The notes under the pieces are model-generated. The model saw only the letters and a list, made by a program, of their open reading frames with translations. It had not been told where the DNA came from and did not search any database. Below, piece after piece: positions 10,497 through 19,824 of a stretch of 64,000 bases of DNA (positions within the stretch are counted from its first letter, which is position 1; the number at the start of each line of letters is the position of its first letter). A program made the translations under genes and the position numbers. The stretch is from assembly GCA_963748815.1 (NCBI GenBank), contig CAVVKJ010000010.1, positions 736,001 to 800,000 on the forward strand, written 5' to 3'. This DNA comes from an uncultured Gemmatimonadales bacterium. GTDB taxonomy: Bacteria > Gemmatimonadota > Gemmatimonadetes > Gemmatimonadales > GWC2-71-9.

Positions 10497-13307
10497 TTAT
10501 GGCTGCGCCGGCGGCGCCTTCCCCTTGGCAAAATCACCGGCGGTGATGACCGTGAATTTCGAGGGGACGATGAAGGCGCGGAATCCGTTGCTCACTTGCG
10601 CGGGCGTGAGGGCGTCGATCGCCTGGTCGAGCTTCGCCTCCCACGCCATGGTGCGCCCGAGGTAGAGCCCATCCACAAGTTGATCGGCCAGGCTGCCGTC
10701 GTCGGCGCGGGCGATCTGACGCTGCTGCAGGTATCCTGCCTTCCCCTTGGACACCTCTTCGGGAGTGAAACCGCCGTTGACGGCCGTGTCGGTCACTTGC
10801 TTGAACGCCTCGACCACCTTGGCGCCATTCTCGGGCGCGAAGATGGCGTACACGAACTCCTGGCCCACCTGATCCTCAGAGCTGGCGCTCAGCCCGCTCC
10901 CGACCCCGTAGCTCAGCCCTTCCGTCTGCCGAATCCGGACCATCAGCCGGGAATCGAACGCCGAGCCGCCGTAGATGTAGTCCCCGATGGCCACGGCCGG
11001 ATAGGCCGCATCCGCATCGCTCAATGGGAAGCTGGTCGACGCCAGCATGATCGCGTTGGCCTTGTCCGGGGTCTCGATCTGCTCACTGACCGCCGGCTTA
11101 TCGGACAGCAGGTCCGGGATGCGGGCGTACGCCGCGGGGCTCTTCCAGGCGCCGAAGATCTCGGTCAGGACCGGCGTGATCTCCGACGCCGCAAAGTCCC
11201 CGACGATCGCCGTCTCGCCGGCGCCGACCCCGTAGAACTCGACCCAGAAACGCTTGGCCTCCTCGACCGTCGCGGCGTTCAGCAGCGCCACCCGTTCGTC
11301 GATGGAGCTGACGTACCGCGGGTGGCCCGGCGGGTAGGCCTGCGTCGCCCGGGCGAGCGCCGTCTGCGCGAGGGCGATCGGGTCGCTCCGCTGCGACTCC
11401 AGCCGCGCCAGCCCTTCGCGCTGCAGCGTCGCGAACTCCGCCGGGTCGAAGCTCGGTTGCCGGAGTACTTCGCCCACGAGGCGGAGCACCGCCGGGAAAT
11501 TCGCGCGGACGGTGGAAATCGAGACGGTCGCCCCCTCGGCGGATCCGCGCACGCTGACCTGTGCCTTGAGCCGGTCGAACTCGTCCTTGATCTGCTGGCG
11601 CGTGTGGGTCGCCGTGCCCCGGAGCAGCATCGATCCGGCCAGCGACGCCGCCGTCGCCCGGCCGGTGAGGGCCGACTCGGTGCCGAAATGCAGCTGGATG
11701 GAGGCGTTGACCGTCTGGCCCCGCGTCTCCTTCGGGAGCAGCGCGACCTTCATGCCGCTCGGGAGCTCCGACCGCGTGGTCCGCGCGTCGATGTTGGCCG
11801 GTGAGGCGTCGAAGGCCTCGCCCAACGTCATCGTGGTGTCGCCCTTGTAGTCCTTGACCATCGCCGCGATGTCCGGCGCCGGCGGCATCTCCGCGCGATC
11901 CGGCTTGGTGGTCGGGACGAACACCCCGAGCGTCCGGTTGCTCGGCTTGACGTAGGCCGCCGCCACCCGTTGCACGTCCGCAGGCGTCACGGCACGCACC
12001 CGGTCCCGGTTGATGAAGATGAGCCGCCAGTCGCCCCGCGAGGCCCACTCGCTGAGGGCGAGCCCCACCTGGTCCGTCTGGGTCAGGCTCAGTTCGATGT
12101 TCTTCAGGATGGTCTGCTTGGCCCGCGCCACTTCCTCCTCGGTGGGCGGGCGCGTCGTCACCTCGTCGAGGGTGGCGAGCAGCGCCGCCTGCGCCACGGC
12201 CAGCGTGTCCTCGGTGCGGAGCTGCGCGCCGGCCAGCAGCATGCTCGGCTGGTAGAGCTGGTACGCCGACGACCAGACCCGGGCGGCGCGCTTCGGCTCG
12301 ACCAGCGCCTGGTACAGCCGCCCGCTGGGGGCCGAACCGAGGATCTGCGTGAGGACGCTGATGGCGGCGAAGTCAGGCTCCGACCCGGCGGGGATGTGGA
12401 ACCCGGCCAGGATGACCTGCTCGTCACCCACCCGCCGGAGCGTCACCGTCCGCTCGCCGTCCTGCACCGGCTCGACGGTGTAGGTGCCCCACAGGATGTT
12501 GCCGCCTTCGCGTTTCGGCCGGGGAATCGCGCCGTAGAGCTGTTCGATCCGCTTCAGGACCGCCGCGTCGTCGAACTTCCCCGCCACGACCAGGATCGCG
12601 TTGTCGGGCTGATAGTACTTCCGATAGAACCCCTGCAGCCGTCCGATCGGGACGTTCTCGATGTCCGAACGCGCGCCGATCGTGGAGTTGCCGTAGTTGT
12701 GCCAGAGATAGGCCGTCGAGAACACTCGCTCCTCGAGAATGGAGCCCGGGTCGTTCTCGCCCATTTCGAACTCGTTGCGGACCACGGTCATCTCGGATTC
12801 GAGATCACTCTTGGCAATGAACGAGTTCACCATCCGGTCCGCTTCGAGCCGCAGCGCCCAGTCGACGTTTTCCGGCGTCGCGGGCACCATCTCGAAATAG
12901 TTGGTGCGATCGTACCACGTCGTCCCGTTGAACTGGGCGCCGTGCTGCGTCATTTCCTCGCCGATCTTCGGGTGGCCGGTCGAGCCCTTGAAGAGCAGGT
13001 GCTCCAGCAGGTGCGCCATGCCCGTCTCGCCGTAGTCCTCGTGCCGGGACCCCACCAGGTAGGTGATGTTGACCGTCGTGACGGCCTTGGTCTGGTCGGG
13101 GAGGAGGAGGATCCGCAGGCCGTTCGGCAGCTGGTACTCGGTGATCCCCTCGACGGAGGCGACCTTGACCGCCTTCGGAGCGGGCTGGGAGGGCTTGGCT
13201 GGCCTGGCGGGCTTGGTGACCGGCTGTTGGGCCGGGACAACCCCCGCCGCGGCGATCGCCAGCAGCACGGTGAGCAGGCCCGCACGTTTCCAGGAAGCAA
13301 TGGACAT
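10497..13307 (-). CDS. M16 (pitrilysin/insulinase) zinc peptidase, secreted
   Basis: Signal peptide, GMAHLLEHLLFKGS (HxxEH), four M16 domains. Confidence 0.93.
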   Translation of the reverse strand: MSIASWKRAGLLTVLLAIAAAGVVPAQQPVTKPARPAKPSQPAPKAVKVASVEGITEYQLPNGLRILLLPDQTKAVTTVNITYLVGSRHEDYGETGMAHLLEHLLFKGSTGHPKIGEEMTQHGAQFNGTTWYDRTNYFEMVPATPENVDWALRLEADRMVNSFIAKSDLESEMTVVRNEFEMGENDPGSILEERVFSTAYLWHNYGNSTIGARSDIENVPIGRLQGFYRKYYQPDNAILVVAGKFDDAAVLKRIEQLYGAIPRPKREGGNILWGTYTVEPVQDGERTVTLRRVGDEQVILAGFHIPAGSEPDFAAISVLTQILGSAPSGRLYQALVEPKRAARVWSSAYQLYQPSMLLAGAQLRTEDTLAVAQAALLATLDEVTTRPPTEEEVARAKQTILKNIELSLTQTDQVGLALSEWASRGDWRLIFINRDRVRAVTPADVQRVAAAYVKPSNRTLGVFVPTTKPDRAEMPPAPDIAAMVKDYKGDTTMTLGEAFDASPANIDARTTRSELPSGMKVALLPKETRGQTVNASIQLHFGTESALTGRATAASLAGSMLLRGTATHTRQQIKDEFDRLKAQVSVRGSAEGATVSISTVRANFPAVLRLVGEVLRQPSFDPAEFATLQREGLARLESQRSDPIALAQTALARATQAYPPGHPRYVSSIDERVALLNAATVEEAKRFWVEFYGVGAGETAIVGDFAASEITPVLTEIFGAWKSPAAYARIPDLLSDKPAVSEQIETPDKANAIMLASTSFPLSDADAAYPAVAIGDYIYGGSAFDSRLMVRIRQTEGLSYGVGSGLSASSEDQVGQEFVYAIFAPENGAKVVEAFKQVTDTAVNGGFTPEEVSKGKAGYLQQRQIARADDGSLADQLVDGLYLGRTMAWEAKLDQAIDALTPAQVSNGFRAFIVPSKFTVITAGDFAKGKAPPAQP

Positions 13308-13412: not shown

Positions 13413-13862
13413 TTAGGGCACCGCCACCGTCACGGGAAAAGGCCCGAAGGTGAGGTCATCCGCCGAGGCCTCGTGCCCCCAGCCGACGGTCACCGTCCCG
13501 GTGCCGGCCGCGACTTGCGCCGTCACATCGAATTCGAAATGCGCCGCGGCATCCTCGACCGCCGTGGCGAGCGCGCCTGGGGTGAACGCGAGCGCCGCGA
13601 AGTGGTCTGCCTCGATGCCCGTGATTTCGTCGCCGTCGGCGGCGTAGAACTTCACCACGACCCGCGTGACCGCGCCGGCCTCGAGCGTCAGGTTGGCGGT
13701 TTCATCCACGTCGTTGACGAACAGCTTGGCCGAGGCAGGCGTGTGGCCGTGCTCTGGCGCCGCCGCCTCGTCGCTGTTGCAGGCTACGACGCCCAGCGCG
13801 AGCGCGAGCAGGGGAAGGGCCATCAGCTGCGCCATCGTCCGGCGCGATACGTGTGGGAACAT
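13413..13862 (-). CDS. His-rich lipoprotein, putative metal-binding partner of the TonB receptor
   Basis: Lipobox VVAC; EHGH, DH, AHF, GWGHE. Confidence 0.7.
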   Translation of the reverse strand: MFPHVSRRTMAQLMALPLLALALGVVACNSDEAAAPEHGHTPASAKLFVNDVDETANLTLEAGAVTRVVVKFYAADGDEITGIEADHFAALAFTPGALATAVEDAAAHFEFDVTAQVAAGTGTVTVGWGHEASADDLTFGPFPVTVAVP

Positions 13863-13900
13863 GGGAACAACCTCCTGGACAGCAGGGTGAAACCCGCGGG

Positions 13901-15982
13901 TTAGCGCGGGTGGAGCAGGCGCACCGACACGAGCAAGCTTCGGGGAGCGCCGGGATTGATGTAGCCGGACGCGCGGATATCCGCGTATTTGGTATCGAAG
14001 ACGTTCAGCAGGTCCACGTCGATGCTGGTGCGGGCGCCGAGGGCGATGGATCCGCCAAGGTCGACGACCGCGTATGCCTCCGTCGTCACACCCGGCTCGC
14101 CGATCGGCGTGAACGGGCCAGTGAAGCGGACCAGGGCATAGGTAGAGAAACCCCTCCCCGGGGCAAACTCGGCCCCGACGCGGCCGAAATAGTCGGAGAC
14201 GCCGGGTACCGGATCGCCGGGCTCGAGGGGCTCGGTGTGGAAGTTCGGGCGGGGCGGACGGAGGGCGACGCGGTCCAGCTCGACATTGACCGGTTCGGCT
14301 GCGCCGGTAATCGTCGCGTCATTGAACGTCGCCTCGGCCTGGAGCGTCAACTTGCGGCCCATCTGCCAGGCCGCGCTCGCCGAGATGCCGCGCCGGCGGC
14401 TGGTGCCCGTCGCCAGGATGTCCAGGGTAACGGGATCCTTGATGCGTTCATTGGCCGTGTTGAACTGAAAGAGCGACGCGGTCACCAGGAGGGTACTCGT
14501 GCCGTACTCGGCGCCGATTTCACCGGCCCAGGCCGTCACGAGCGGGCGGTCCGGGTCGCCGATCACGCCGACCGGACCCCGAAACCCGCGGGCGAGGGAC
14601 CCGAGCAACCGTACGCGGCTGGAGGCCATGTAGCTCGCCCCGATCTTCGGGCTGAGCACCGGATCGGTGGCGTCCTGCCACGCGGCCAGCGAATCGAGGC
14701 GGTTGAGGCTCTCGTAATGGACCAGGTCACCGCGCAGCCCGAGATCGTACATGAACCGGGTGCTCAGCATCCCGCGCCAGCGGCCGTAGAGCCCGAGGGC
14801 CTGGTACCGTCCGTCATTGGATTGCTCGGCAGATACCGGCACGCGCTCATCGGTCTGTTCGAGATCATAGGCCGTCCAGTCGGCCCGCCCCGCAAGGCCA
14901 AGACTCAGCTCGCCGTCGCCCTTCACGCGGCTGACCTGGGCTTGCATCCCGACCGCGTGACGATCGTCCCGTTCCGCGGTCTGCTGAGGCGTGCCGTCTT
15001 CCGGCAGGGTGAGGAAGACCGTGGAGCGTCCCACCTGTCCCCAGAGCTGGGTTTCGAGGGTGGTCGTCGGGTTCAGGGCGACGCCATACCGCAGGGTACC
15101 GATGTAGCGGTCGGCATCGCCCCCGTCGGTGGTGTCGGTGGCCGCGACGAGATCGCCCTGATTGTACCGGTCCACCGACACGTATCCGGGCGAGTTCCAG
15201 GCGGAGCCGTACCCGTACAGTCCCCCCTCAAGTCGCCCCTTCCCGACCATTTGCCAGCCGCGAAGGACCGCGGTGCCGAGCAGGTAGTCGGCATTCTCCC
15301 GCCATCCCTCCTCCCGCTGCCCCGAGACCGAGAAGAGCGCCCCGGCGTCCGGCTGACGGAACCCACCCGTCACCCACCCGCGCACGTCGCCAAACGAGGT
15401 CACCCCCACGGAGGCGGTCGTCGCATCGGCGTCGGCGGCGGTGTACACCTCGACGACGCCCCCGAGTGAGAAATCGCCGTAGAGCGGGCTGGCCGGACCG
15501 TGAATGACGCGGGTGGCGCTGATGGCGCCCGGCGAGAGGATGCTCCAGTCGGCGTACCCTTCCACGTGGCCGTGAATCGGCAGGTTGATCGCCACACCAT
15601 CGAGGACGAGGAGCACGTCGGAGGAGTGATCGGAAGTGAAGCCGCCAATCACCACGTTCGAGGCGAATCCCGGACCCTGGCCCTGTTGGTGCACTTCGAT
15701 TCCCGCGGACCGGCCGATGAGGTCGTACGGGTTCCCGGCGGGGGCGCGCTGAATCGCCTCGGTGCTCACGTCAACTGTGGCGACGGGCGGGGCGACCGCG
15801 TGCTCCCGCTTCCCGGTGACGACGATTGGCGTGACGGTGGTCGGCCTCGTCGAGTCCCCCCGGGCCGGCGCCGGCTCTTGCGCAGCCGCCCGACCCCCGA
15901 ACGCCACGAGCGCGCAGGCGCAGGCCGCCACGCGCAAGGAGGTGCGCCGGCGAGCGGGGCGAAGAGGTGATCCAGCTTCCAT
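13901..15982 (-). CDS. TonB-dependent receptor
   Basis: IVVTG TonB box, plug with PIHGHVEGYAD and GDFSLGGVV, C-terminal NVFD..Y and PGAPRS. Confidence 0.9.
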   Translation of the reverse strand: MEAGSPLRPARRRTSLRVAACACALVAFGGRAAAQEPAPARGDSTRPTTVTPIVVTGKREHAVAPPVATVDVSTEAIQRAPAGNPYDLIGRSAGIEVHQQGQGPGFASNVVIGGFTSDHSSDVLLVLDGVAINLPIHGHVEGYADWSILSPGAISATRVIHGPASPLYGDFSLGGVVEVYTAADADATTASVGVTSFGDVRGWVTGGFRQPDAGALFSVSGQREEGWRENADYLLGTAVLRGWQMVGKGRLEGGLYGYGSAWNSPGYVSVDRYNQGDLVAATDTTDGGDADRYIGTLRYGVALNPTTTLETQLWGQVGRSTVFLTLPEDGTPQQTAERDDRHAVGMQAQVSRVKGDGELSLGLAGRADWTAYDLEQTDERVPVSAEQSNDGRYQALGLYGRWRGMLSTRFMYDLGLRGDLVHYESLNRLDSLAAWQDATDPVLSPKIGASYMASSRVRLLGSLARGFRGPVGVIGDPDRPLVTAWAGEIGAEYGTSTLLVTASLFQFNTANERIKDPVTLDILATGTSRRRGISASAAWQMGRKLTLQAEATFNDATITGAAEPVNVELDRVALRPPRPNFHTEPLEPGDPVPGVSDYFGRVGAEFAPGRGFSTYALVRFTGPFTPIGEPGVTTEAYAVVDLGGSIALGARTSIDVDLLNVFDTKYADIRASGYINPGAPRSLLVSVRLLHPR

Positions 15983-16135
15983 GGGTCGTCGATTCCGCCG
16001 CCGCCCGCGTCGATGGACCCCGATGGGATCCGGTCAGACGTACGACGGCAAAGACACGATTCCCCGGCCAGGGCCGAAGGATGAGGTGGTGCGACTAGAG
16101 TGTGGGGGACTGTCCGACGCGCGAAAACGCGGGGA

Positions 16136-16522
16136 TCAGCCGAGCGGAGCGGGAGGAGCGGTCGCGAAGGGTTGGAGGTGGTCGGACGGGGTAATCGGAG
16201 CCGGTTGCGAGTCGTCGAGCCACGGCAGGGCGGCGACGGCCGCCGGACCGGCCTCCGCCAGGGTGGTTGCGACCGGCAAGATCGTCGCCGTGGCCAGCGC
16301 GCAGTGACCGACGCAGCGGCAGGGGGTTGGGGCTTCAGGGCTTTGCCCATCGCCGGGAGGGGCGTCAGGCTCGGCGTGTCGATGGCCTCCCGCGGCGACC
16401 GACGCGCCGTCGGCCACGGATGGCGGGCAGGAGTGCAGGCCGCCGGGCACGGCCGTAACCAGGCCGAACCAGACCGAGAGTACTCCCGCGAGGGACCGGG
16501 CCCAGCCGTTCGTGGCGCGCAT
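16136..16522 (-). CDS. DUF2946-like Cys/His leader protein
   Basis: N-terminal TM, LHSCP, HRH, CRCVGHC, C-terminal PFATAPP; directly upstream of the TBDR. Confidence 0.65.
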   Translation of the reverse strand: MRATNGWARSLAGVLSVWFGLVTAVPGGLHSCPPSVADGASVAAGGHRHAEPDAPPGDGQSPEAPTPCRCVGHCALATATILPVATTLAEAGPAAVAALPWLDDSQPAPITPSDHLQPFATAPPAPLG

Positions 16523-16532
16523 CTTTCCGAAT

Positions 16533-19500
16533 CTAGCGGGAGCCGCCTACCTCGTCCACCAGCGTTCCGCCGGGGGCGGCGGCCCGCCGCCCGCGCAGGC
16601 GGTTCCCGAGGGCCTCGCGCCAGTCGAAGAAGATCTCGTAGACCGTCGGGATGACGAGCAGCGTCAACAGCGTCGACGTGAGCACCCCACCGATGACGGC
16701 CACGCCGAGCGGCTGGCGGAACTGCGCCCCCTCGCCGCTTGCGATGGCCACCGGAATCATCCCGGCAATCAGGGCGAATGTCGTCATCAGAATCGGACGG
16801 AGGCGGATGGCGCCCGCCTCGATGAGCGCCTCCCGAATGGGCATCCCCTTCTCGTGACTCCACTTGGCGAAGTCGATGAGGAGAATCGCGTTCTTCGCGA
16901 CGATTCCCATCAACAGGATAACGCCGATGAGGCTCATGATATTCACGGTCAGCCCGGTGATGGCGAGCGACAGCATGACCCCGATCAACGAGAGCGGCAG
17001 CGACATCAGGATGGCCATGGGGTCGAGGAACGACCCGAACTGCATGACCAGGATCAGGTACATCAACAAGACCGCCACTCCGAGGGCCAGGAAGATGTTT
17101 CCGAACACCTCGCTCTGGTTCTCGGCGTCGCCGCCCTCGGAGTAGGTGACTCCCGGCGGCAGCGGCTCGGTCGCCAGCGCCTTCCGGACATCCGCCATCA
17201 CCTCGCCGGTGGATCGGCCCTGCGTGTTCCACTCGACGTTGACCACGAGGTCCCGGTCGAGGTGGTTGATGACCGCCGGCCCAAGCCCGGCGGTGACACT
17301 CACCACCTGTCCGAGCGGTACGGTGCGCGGGATGCCGTTCACGCCGCCCGGGACGAGCAACGGAAGCTGGCGGAGGTCCTCCGCCCGGCGCCGCGCGGAT
17401 GGCGCCAGCCGCACCACCACGTCCCGGGTTTCGCCGCTGGGGTCCACCCAGTCGCCGGCGTCGATCCCGGCGAAGGCCGGCCGCAGGGCCTGCGCCACCT
17501 GCCCCGCCGTCAGGCCGAGCGCCCCGGCCAGACCGCGATCCAGGTCAACCGTCAGTTCGGGTCGCTGTCCCTTGCTGGACAGCGCGATGTCCACCGAGCC
17601 CTCCGTGGCGGCGACGATCGCGCGAACCTGCTCCGCCCCGGCGTTGATCGACGCGAGGTCGGGGCCCTTCACCTGGAGTGCGAGTTGTTTGCGCCCGCCT
17701 CCCATGTCGCTGGTGAACAGCGCCATGTTGACGCCGCCCAGCTGGACCAGCTCGCTCCGGATTTCCGCCCCGATGCGCTCGGCATCCAGCGGGCGTTCGT
17801 TCTTGGGCACCAGCTTGACATACATGCGCCCCACGTCGACGGCGCTGGAGGACGGATCGCCGAGGGTGATGTAGCTGTACATCACGTCCGGGCGCGCGCG
17901 GATGATGCGGTCCGCCTCCTCGGCCTTGGCGCGCGTGTACGCCAGGTTGGATCCGGGCGGGGTCTCGATCTGGACGTTGAACTCGGAGCGGTCGTCGAGG
18001 GGCATGAAGCCGACGCCCACCTTGTGCCACTCCGGCACCACCAGGAACAGTCCGACTCCCACCACGACCCCGACGACCGCCCCGCCGAGGCGCACCGCCA
18101 GCGGACGCGTGCCCGAGAGCGACCAGACGCTCACCACCAGCCCGGTCACCAGCGCCAGGAAGCCAAGCACCCCGTTCCACAGCAGGGCAAAGGCGCTGAT
18201 CATGGATCCCGTCGCCAGCAGCACCATGGCGGCACGGTGGTCCAGCGCCCACGCGATCACCCCGCGATAGCGCTCCGCCATCCGGTTGAACCAGGCGTTG
18301 AACCTGTCGAGCGTGCGCGTGATCCAGCTGCGCTTCTCCACGGGCACATGCGGATCGGGCCAGTAGGCGGACAGCATCGGGTCGAGCGAAAAGCTGACGA
18401 AGAGCGACACGAAGCACCGAGCAGGCCATCGTCAGGGCGAAGGGCTTGAACCACTGTCCGCCCACGCCGGACATGAAGGCCACCGGGAGGAACACGGCGA
18501 GGATCGAGAAGGTCGTGGCCGTCACCGCCAGCCCGATCTCGTCGGTCCCTTCGAGCGACGCGGTGTAGTGGTCCTTCCCGAGCTCGACGTGCCGCACGAT
18601 GTTTTCCCGGACCACGATCGCGTCGTCGATCAGGATGCCGATGGCCAGGGAGAGGCCGAGGAGCGACATCGTCTCCAGCTTGAAGCCGAACGCCCACACC
18701 GCGATGAACGACGCGAGCACGCTGACCGGGAGGGCGAGGCCGGTGATGACGGTGGAGCGCCAGGAATTGAGGAAGAGGAAGACCACCAGCACGGTCAGGA
18801 GCGCGCCTTCGAACAGCGCCTCCTGCACGTTGCGGACGGCGGCGGTGACGCGGGTGCCGGAGTTCTTCACCACGTTGATCGTGGTGCCCTCCGGGAGGGT
18901 CGCCTCGAGCTTGTGCACGCGTTCGAGCAGCTGTTCGGCCACGTCGGTCGTGCTGTAGCCCTTCGACTTCTTGATGTCGATCCCGACCGCTTCCGTGCCG
19001 TTGAAGAGCGCCAGCGTCCGCTGCTCCTCGATGCCGTCCCGGACGTCGGCCACCTGGCCGAGGCGGATCAGCACGCCGTTCCGCTCCGCCACAACGAGCT
19101 GGGCAAACTCCGCCGGGCCGCCCAGGCGGCCCTGGAGGCGGATGGCCCGCTCATCGTACTCCCCCTGCACCCGCCCCACCGGGGCGGCGAGGTTCTGGGC
19201 CTGCAGCGCCTGCACCACCTGCGCCACGCTCACCCGCGCCGCCTGGAGGGCCGCGGGCCGCAGCTCCACCGTCAGCTCCCGCTCCTGCTTGCCCGTCACC
19301 GTGACCTCGGCGACGCCCGGAATCGACCGCAGCTCACGCGTGATGCCAGGGTCGGCAAGCCGCGTGAGCTCGGCCGGCGTGAGCCGGGTGGACGACAGCG
19401 CGAGCGACACGATGGGGCGGTCGGTGTCGTTCAGCTTCTTGATGATCGGCTCTTCCATCTCGGCCGGCAGGTCGTTGCGGATGGCGGAAATGGCGTCCCG

Positions 19501-19824
19501 GATATCCTGAGTGGCCTCGGGGAGCGGTTTCTCGAAGATGAACTCGATCAGCACGAAGGCGAATCCATCCTCCGCCTTGCCCGTGACCTTCTTGACCCCG
19601 CTGATGGACGCGATCGCCTCTTCGACCGGGTTGAGGACTTCCGTCTCCACGGTCTCCGGCGACGCCCCGGGATACGGCACGGCCACCGAGACGTACGGCG
19701 GCGCCACCTCCGGGAACTCGTCGGTCTGGAGCCTGATCAGGGCGATGATCCCGCCCACCACGAGCGCCAGCATGGTGACGACGGTGATAGTCGGGCGCTT
19801 GATGGCGAAATCGGAAATGAGCAT
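16533..19824 (-). CDS. RND efflux transporter, AcrB/MdtB family (+1 indel near 18412)
   Basis: MLISDFAIKRP, GILIDDAIVVREN, GIVAKNAILL, RLRPILMT. Confidence 0.93.

Follow-up and report, generated by a model that had tools for sequence, protein, structure and literature searches.

An arginine-less leader peptide family resembling CruR/CutF-type leaders and heading putative copper-uptake operons in Gemmatimonadota

Results

Organization of the locus

The 64,000-nt stretch of DNA analysed here (hereafter the window; positions 736,001 to 800,000 of contig CAVVKJ010000010.1, assembly GCA_963748815.1, from an uncultured Gemmatimonadales bacterium) harbours a three-gene cluster composed of a small leader open reading frame (ORF) as its first gene, followed by a TonB-dependent receptor (TBDR) and a His lipoprotein (Table 1). 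The named features by which the first-pass annotation had singled out the leader are all present, namely LHSCP (residues 29-33), HRH (47-49), CRCVGHC (68-74) and the C-terminus HLQPFATAPPAPLG, and both the TBDR with PIHGHVEGY and the lipoprotein with EHGH and GWGHE were found downstream as described. The transmembrane segment proposed in that annotation corresponds to a hydrophobic N-terminus (best 15-residue Kyte-Doolittle mean of 2.09) with a predicted helix, for which signal peptide and membrane anchor are alternative assignments; the AlphaFold2 (AF2) model consists of this single helix, the remainder being predicted as disordered (predicted template modelling score, pTM, 0.32), and is uninformative past it. 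Neither Pfam nor NCBIfam yields a match to the leader protein at E ≤ 1. The intergenic region between leader and TBDR consists of a short GC hairpin after the stop codon, a C-rich and G-poor stretch, a second hairpin and a weak Shine-Dalgarno (SD)-like GGCGGA.

Table 1. Positions of the leader, its predicted elements and the adjoining genes in the window
Feature	Positions	Strand	Remarks and basis
Leader ORF of the Arg-less CruR/CutF-like family	16136..16522	(-)	128 aa; homology, motif, synteny
TAGATT, predicted -10 box of a leaderless transcript	16530..16535	(-)	Sequence and family statistics
N-terminal hydrophobic helix, signal peptide or membrane anchor	16451..16510	(-)	Residues 5-24; AF2 and hydropathy
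CxCxGHC, predicted metal-binding cluster	16301..16321	(-)	C68, C70, C74; family conservation
C-terminal motif HLQPFATAPP, predicted arrest/pause site	16151..16180	(-)	Codons C/U-biased; conservation, codon counts
Intergenic region	15983..16135	(-)	153 nt; order hairpin, C-rich, hairpin, SD-like
TonB-dependent receptor (TBDR)	13901..15982	(-)	693 aa; Pfam Plug and barrel domains
His lipoprotein, predicted Ig-like beta-sandwich	13413..13862	(-)	149 aa, Cys28 lipobox-like; conserved His, model
AcrB-like RND gene	16533..19824	(-)
M16 peptidase	10497..13307	(-)

A conserved leader family in Gemmatimonadota

Because a homologue search with the single leader sequence returned only itself, homologues were reached through synteny with the TBDR. 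A TBDR search retrieved 77 loci, and a leader profile seeded on 48 upstream ORFs chosen by a loose motif detected a leader upstream of 70 of them, bearing out the expected synteny; of the seven loci lacking one, four have less than 20 nt of upstream sequence and three have 1.5-2 kb and no motif. In two loci (L037 and L053) the leader is frameshifted and the motif sits in another frame; these were dropped, which left 68 distinct leader sequences, window included, and 67 in alignment A1, from which the partial L033 was excluded. Mean column identity in A1 is 23%, with P118, P123 and P124 invariant in all 67 sequences. The A1 profile matches 165 of 301 sampled Gemmatimonadota genomes and 2,657 sequence clusters (50% identity, E ≤ 1e-3). 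The named hits belong to Gemmatimonadota, and one feature-similar Atlas cluster is mostly of Pseudomonadota. The counts given below refer to three overlapping sets, i.e. 68 TBDR-anchored leaders, 98 genome hits and 150 best representatives (316 sequences in all), the last of which carry a hydrophobic N-terminal stretch in 147 cases. The leader family is thus a real, conserved feature without existing annotation.

The genome of the window encodes a paralogous leader (L079/L081; G000:C10:113318-113686, minus strand) located directly before mbnP-mbnH, with a deviant end, FSLHLAQPPP (closing LHLAQPPPAQA), in which His replaces Pro at position -5. Tandem copies occur in some genomes, and two or three family leaders may stand in tandem or in series at a single locus (L176, L177, L178, L170, L179, L180, L143 and L164).

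An arginine-less C-terminal motif

Leaders of the family end in the consensus H/F/Y-L-L-P-[FY]-A-x-[GA]-P-P, followed by a tail of 1-10 residues, where x, the position taken by Arg in RAPP, varies among N, T, I, Q, L, H and V. Arg was found at this position in 0/68, 0/98 and 0/150 leaders, and R[AG]PP therefore occurs in none of the sets, while Pro at -5 is present in 68/68, 97/98 and 150/150, respectively; the anchoring score favoured Pro at -5, and alignment A1 agrees independently. TAPP in place of RAPP, as the first-pass annotation had put it, does not describe the family, since TAPP is a minority form (16/68, 24/98 and 22/150 homologues), N-G-P-P is the commonest among database representatives, and QAPP and HAPP also occur; the conserved novelty is the loss of Arg together with near-invariant Pro-5 and Phe/Tyr-4. 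Conservation of the C-terminal motif across homologues accordingly holds for P-[FY]-A-x-[GA]-P-P and not for the variable T. A C-terminal P[FYWL]xx[AGP]PP pattern was found in 0/1948 long control ORFs of the window's genome. Conservation purely at the RNA level was ruled out, as synonymous codons vary at each position.

Since the profile might be biased against RAPP, two controls were run. When the regions upstream of the 77 TBDRs were scanned without the profile, no ORF combining Cys with R[AG]PP emerged, and a search of the same 301 genomes with the DUF2946 model yielded a separate class of leaders, RAPP being the ending at 21 of its 30 best loci. These 21 RAPP leaders of Gemmatimonadota have their CxxC mostly 50-52/46-49 residues before PP. 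The two types coexist in 11 genomes (G027, G035, G073, G076, G099, G105, G243, G254, G271, G275 and G277), which makes the loss of Arg a trait of the subfamily, not of the phylum; a phylum-wide ribosome change abolishing the use of RAPP is ruled out by the same observations. In G277 (C1:2306114-2307101) an Arg-less leader (L156) and a RAPP leader (L133) are divergently arranged on the two strands, back to back, and each is the first gene of a separate operon. A third, His-rich leader type (HTHxH), ending in [TF]HPP[RK]A, was observed at L111 and L134, the former preceding an outer-membrane efflux gene.

Cysteine cluster and relation to DUF2946 and CopL

A CxC..C cluster is located 46-55 residues before the prolines, with Cys peaks at 46-49 and 52-55; in the window leader, C68, C70 and C74 lie 55, 53 and 49 residues ahead of the first Pro of PP. 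CxC was found in 149/150 representatives, CxCxGxC in 111/150 and CxxxC in 118/150, CxxC being limited to 10/150. The first-pass annotation had proposed the leader as a divergent version of the DUF2946 leaders, for which the architecture, the Cys-PP spacing and a similarity that is weak but recurs across homologues speak. The hidden Markov model of DUF2946 (PF11162, gathering cut-off 23.7 bits) did not match the window leader at E ≤ 1, whereas 26 of 67 family members matched at this threshold, three of them above the cut-off (35.4, 26.0 and 25.5 bits). Weak matches to the NCBIfam CopL profile (NF033807) at E ≤ 0.1 were obtained for 17 of the 67, the best having an E-value of 9.6e-05, and none for the window leader. 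On these profile comparisons, distant kinship of the family to DUF2946 is likely, the window protein not being a member by the profile test. With 128 aa, a hydrophobic helix at residues 5-24 as putative export signal, PP four residues from the end and a CxxxC (C70-C74), the window leader agrees with the rule set for CutF-like proteins, which asks for fewer than 150 aa, export through the N-terminus, PP within the last 15 residues and a metal motif of Cys or His (PMC9973294).

A probable leaderless start

The arrangement TAGATT-N7-ATG reported for the leader is present, with TAGATT at 16535-16530 and, after 7 nt, ATG at 16522. Its TAG also terminates the AcrB-like gene that lies upstream, which had been overlooked, and the promoter claim hence needed outside support. 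A TAnnnT hexamer 5-8 nt before the in-frame start was found in 67/150 leaders, with a peak at 6-7 nt (35/97 when one leader per cluster was taken), compared with 3/109 and 3/111 in off-frame controls and 121/1947 among long genome ORFs. Furthermore, at this spacing the close relatives L003, L005, L012 and L014 carry TACATT, in which no stop codon is involved. The in-frame excess and the TACATT of the relatives favour a leaderless start, and make it likely, as judged from these patterns, that the promoter is real.

The AcrB-like resistance-nodulation-division (RND) gene is split by one frameshift near 18415 relative to an intact homologue in L009, and the mbnH gene that follows the paralogous leader, also on this contig, is frameshifted too, which makes assembly indels likely.

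Downstream genes

The first downstream ORF was scanned for 70 of the 88 leaders that had a called neighbour; the 18 loci left out were top-scoring ones, nearly all with a window-type TBDR by inspection, and the 60 extra regions were chosen paralogues and weaker hits rather than a random sample. Within this scope, the first gene encodes a TBDR plug in 42 cases and only a TBDR-type N-domain in two, the remainder being MbnP (seven), PCuAC and CopC (three each), hydroxylases (three), AhpC/TSA and cytochrome c (one each), and eight proteins without match. None of the 70 Arg-less leaders is directly followed by an outer-membrane efflux protein or a multicopper oxidase, whereas the first genes behind RAPP leaders include outer-membrane efflux and ABC genes, unseen behind the Arg-less class. 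Operons with a window-type TBDR also carry MbnP+MbnH, CopC, SCO and PCuAC. MbnP binds copper. The MbnP-copper link was still called unproven in 2013 (PMC3621798), and MbnPH, PCuAC, SCO and CopC are the partners listed for cruR homologues (PMC9426467). Among the metals initially considered (Cu, Ni or Co), the gene neighbourhoods therefore point to copper rather than to Ni or Co, although distant relatives of the TBDR adjoin nikR/HoxN.

The hydroxylases directly behind three leaders (L109, L152 and L157) comprise two Asp/Asn beta-hydroxylases and one fatty-acid hydroxylase. In L170 and L181 the leader precedes a protein of 345-349 aa that matches nothing in Pfam and bears the motif HAPIGV(M/T)G in its N-terminal part.

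The receptor and the His lipoprotein

Pfam recognizes both a Plug domain (E 4.8e-15) and a barrel domain (E 2.9e-20) in the TBDR, and its plug residues His98, His119 and His139 are kept in 76/76 homologues, with His137 in 70/76. Its best matches in the Protein Data Bank (PDB) are BtuB plugs (E 1.5e-10); neither CrtA nor OprC matched in the PDB at E ≤ 1e-3, nor was TIGR01778 among the NCBIfam matches listed. The receptor belongs to a wider family with a QH..DH..HGH plug, which includes distant (~24%) proteobacterial relatives; for CrtA, the consulted sections of PMC12914433 describe no conserved plug His cluster.

The lipoprotein has no Pfam family. Its conserved histidines are His40 (45/48), His87 (50/50) and His130 (50/50), and the model is an Ig-like sandwich (predicted local distance difference test, pLDDT, 94), in which strand order would place the three at one end of the fold. 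Fold searches gave generic Ig-like matches only (best Z 9.4, rmsd 3.0, 97 aligned residues), with no named metal-binding family prominent among them. In four loci (L053, L142, L146 and L149) the domain is fused N-terminally to MbnP. The three-His Ig-fold lipoprotein is thus a candidate new metal-binding domain. The M16 peptidase gene follows the lipoprotein gene on the same strand only in the closest relatives (L001-L003, L007 and L014), and is probably a neighbour rather than a component of the system.

RNA-level signals

In the last 60 nt of the leaders the C/G ratio is 2.0-2.4, whereas 1,939 control genes have 0.8-0.9; the 95th percentile of the controls is exceeded by 101 of 152 leaders, and the C-G excess around the stop codon of the window leader is equalled by 1/1939 control genes. 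The motif codons avoid G at third positions: the first Pro codon is CCT in 77/152 leaders (versus 9% of genomic PP pairs) and the Leu-6 codon is CTT in 57/114 (versus 4.5% genomic). Such C/U-biased codons fit a Rho-loading stretch that would lie beneath a ribosome stalled at PP. Both Rho and elongation factor P (EF-P) are encoded in the genome, and the locus thus bears the CruR-type sequence signature, i.e. a C>G bubble, as of a Rho utilisation site, over the 3' end of the upstream ORF (uORF) in the presence of Rho. The C-rich stretch after the stop codon is retained in the close relatives of the window. Neither an intrinsic terminator nor a sigma-70 promoter was found in the intergenic region. 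A riboswitch-like conserved fold was rejected (z +0.85 for the window region, only short hairpins, covariation term -0.19 in 12 relatives), Rfam not having been searched.

A second signal connects the motif codons with the SD of the next gene, start codons having been picked by best SD score. Across 114 loci, cognate duplexes between the PP zone and the SD zone are more stable than permuted ones (-9.55 versus -8.78 kcal/mol; 0/5,000 permutations). With one locus per cluster (69 clusters), the complementarity between PP codons and SD has z values of -3.2 to -4.2, versus +0.7 to -1.3 for inner-leader controls. Of 114 folds, 43 have the SD base-paired to the PP zone, a number that synonymous recoding lowers to 18. 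The route through Rho is better supported at the window locus than SD masking; both routes share the same logic, in which the stalled state means "on", and they may coexist.

Proposed mechanism and alternatives

Starting from the genes, their conservation, spacing and neighbourhood and the codon signals, we infer a scheme for translation, arrest, metal, direction and output route, in which the leader probably acts as a cis-acting, metal-sensing attenuator resembling CruR, whose stalling without copper keeps uptake on and whose release by copper turns it off. The leaderless mRNA would begin at the ATG, and the hydrophobic N-terminus of the nascent leader would engage the membrane. Once the ribosome reaches PP, the Cys cluster, located 46-55 residues earlier in the chain, would have just emerged from the exit tunnel. 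In the absence of metal the ribosome would be held there, probably by the Pro-5/Phe-4/His-8 segment in replacement of the Arg of RAPP. The stalled ribosome would cover the C/U-rich motif codons and block the loading of Rho, and covering the same codons would free the SD of the next gene in many family members. Copper bound by the Cys/His cluster would then release the stall and switch uptake off, as proposed for CruR.

Several observations weigh against this scheme or parts of it. Loss of Arg abolishes arrest in CruR, ApdA and ApdP (PMC12992588, PMC10951233), from which it follows that an Arg-less motif either uses another tunnel contact (P-5/F-4/H-8) or may pause more weakly, as in CutF. Beyond the stop codon there is little C>G bias, with 8/152 leaders above the 95th percentile of the controls, and the bias partly reflects Pro, His and Leu codons. 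When the leader end was compared with the whole intergenic region, the test for cognate pairing was negative (motif -0.67 versus control -0.73 kcal/mol); a modelled ribosome footprint adds little to the accessibility of the SD (mean 0.34 with it, 0.30 without), the gain exceeding 0.2 in 12/130; and at the window locus the SD has no pairing to the leader in the equilibrium fold (0.0). The window protein itself matches no Pfam or NCBIfam family. Finally, two of the four inspected distant proteobacterial TBDR relatives adjoin nikR, one of them also HoxN/NixA, and the three leaders that precede hydroxylases do not precede copper genes.

These points leave room for a different direction and strength of the response, as in CutF: an EF-P-sensitive diproline pause, prolonged by metal outside the membrane, through which metal would turn the genes on by unmasking the SD. 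The proline-rich end of CutF is no strong staller alone and needs Cu and export (PMC9973294; bioRxiv 10.1101/2025.02.05.636593), and the nearly universal hydrophobic N-terminus (147/150), the frequent CxxxC (118/150), the cognate-specific SD complementarity and the presence of EF-P are all in line with such a pause. However, importers and chaperones that deliver copper predominate downstream, neither a multicopper oxidase nor an efflux gene comes first among the 70, and the intergenic regions are long (median about 115-130 nt), as in cruR (162 bp), so that a CutF-like response appears unlikely here.

The sensing of nickel, cobalt or zinc, imported by the TBDR, would agree with the His-rich character of leader, plug and lipoprotein, and with the presence of the nikR- and HoxN/NixA-linked relatives mentioned above in the wider QH..DH..HGH plug family. 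We nevertheless regard it as decidedly unlikely: among the 70 first downstream genes there is no Ni/Co/Zn-specific family, MbnPH, PCuAC, SCO and CopC recur in operons of the window-type TBDR, four loci carry a fusion of the lipoprotein domain to MbnP, and the nickel-linked loci have no convincing match to the leader profile. That the leader simply works as an exported peptide for chaperoning or storing metal, whose C-terminal motif serves as a binding or degradation signal with no role in cis, agrees with its predicted export, its Cys/His motifs and the tandem copies, but is very improbable in view of the disorder predicted outside the N-terminal helix and of the fixed Cys-PP spacing, short tail, C/U codon bias and cognate SD complementarity, which are expected of a cis-acting nascent peptide instead.

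Beyond the attenuator scheme, the family might constitute a second, phylum-wide class of Arg-independent, metal-sensing arrest peptides, based on a tunnel-proximal H-L-L-P-F segment, with motif codons that double as Rho site and anti-Shine-Dalgarno, coexisting with RAPP leaders in an apparent division of labour (copper uptake versus other metal or efflux operons) and controlling an uncharacterised His-plug TBDR together with a new three-His Ig-fold lipoprotein; we advance this wider view tentatively and rate it slightly short of an even chance.

Comparison with known systems

CruR (Bp2923, DUF2946/PF11162), which heads cruR-crtA(bfrG)-bp2921 in Bordetella pertussis and whose C90 and C93 lie 51 and 48 residues before P141 (PMC9426467), has been demonstrated to undergo arrest (PMC12992588). 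The present family shares with it a small uORF placed first before a TBDR, a predicted N-terminal export signal, a Cys cluster about 50 residues ahead of a C-terminal PP, a long intergenic region (here 153 nt), a 3'-terminal C>G bubble in the uORF and relatives heading MbnPH/PCuAC/SCO/CopC operons; the model with a single N-terminal helix and little else is likewise as reported for CruR. It differs in having no Arg before [AG]PP (0/316 over the three overlapping sets) and near-invariant P-5 and F/Y-4, CxC..C instead of CxxC, an often leaderless start where cruR has a 45-nt leader, a TBDR with no PDB or TIGR01778 match that would make it CrtA or OprC, and a His lipoprotein as partner in place of PepSY_TM.

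With CutF of Rhodobacter capsulatus and the CutF-like proteins including CopL (PMC9973294), the family has in common its small size, a putative signal peptide, a Cys/His motif and PP within the last 15 residues, as well as the common CxxxC, plausible SD unmasking for part of its members and the weak CopL matches of 17/67. CutF turns on a detoxifying oxidase on copper, whereas the present leaders head putative uptake genes. Gemmatimonadota are named neither in the main text nor in three small supplements of the CutF-like survey (PMC9973294), whose protein list (File S1) may nevertheless include members, and a term search of the supplements of PMC9426467, including a 2,172-line table, found no names of this phylum.

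The arrest peptides of the RQH family and the LPPP type, located upstream of secA/secDF, show that the Arg-less QAPP, HAPP and LPPP arrest in vitro (PMC10987492), which limits the novelty of an Arg-less motif; they differ as export monitors relying on Q or H, whereas in the present family this position is free and conservation lies 4-8 residues upstream. A literature search, with most subscription papers outside its coverage, found no work on Gemmatimonad arrest peptides and none describing this motif.

Arrest by RAPP/RAGP is explained structurally by Arg bound in a pocket of the 23S rRNA (PMC10951233), and genome surveys sought R-containing motifs, with AAPP/AGPP as the negative class (PMC12992588). 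An Arg-less family of CruR architecture, with ~2,650 clusters, would escape such surveys of R motifs, and it allows a direct test of whether and how the upstream P-F segment can replace Arg, for which the coexisting RAPP leaders provide natural controls. For Gemmatimonadota, a phylum with, to our knowledge, little genetic work on metal uptake, the predictions extend to a copper regulon, a new subfamily of TBDRs and a new His lipoprotein. The family is an Arg-less variant of the CruR/CutF-type leader system, the regulatory principle of which is already known from CruR and CutF.

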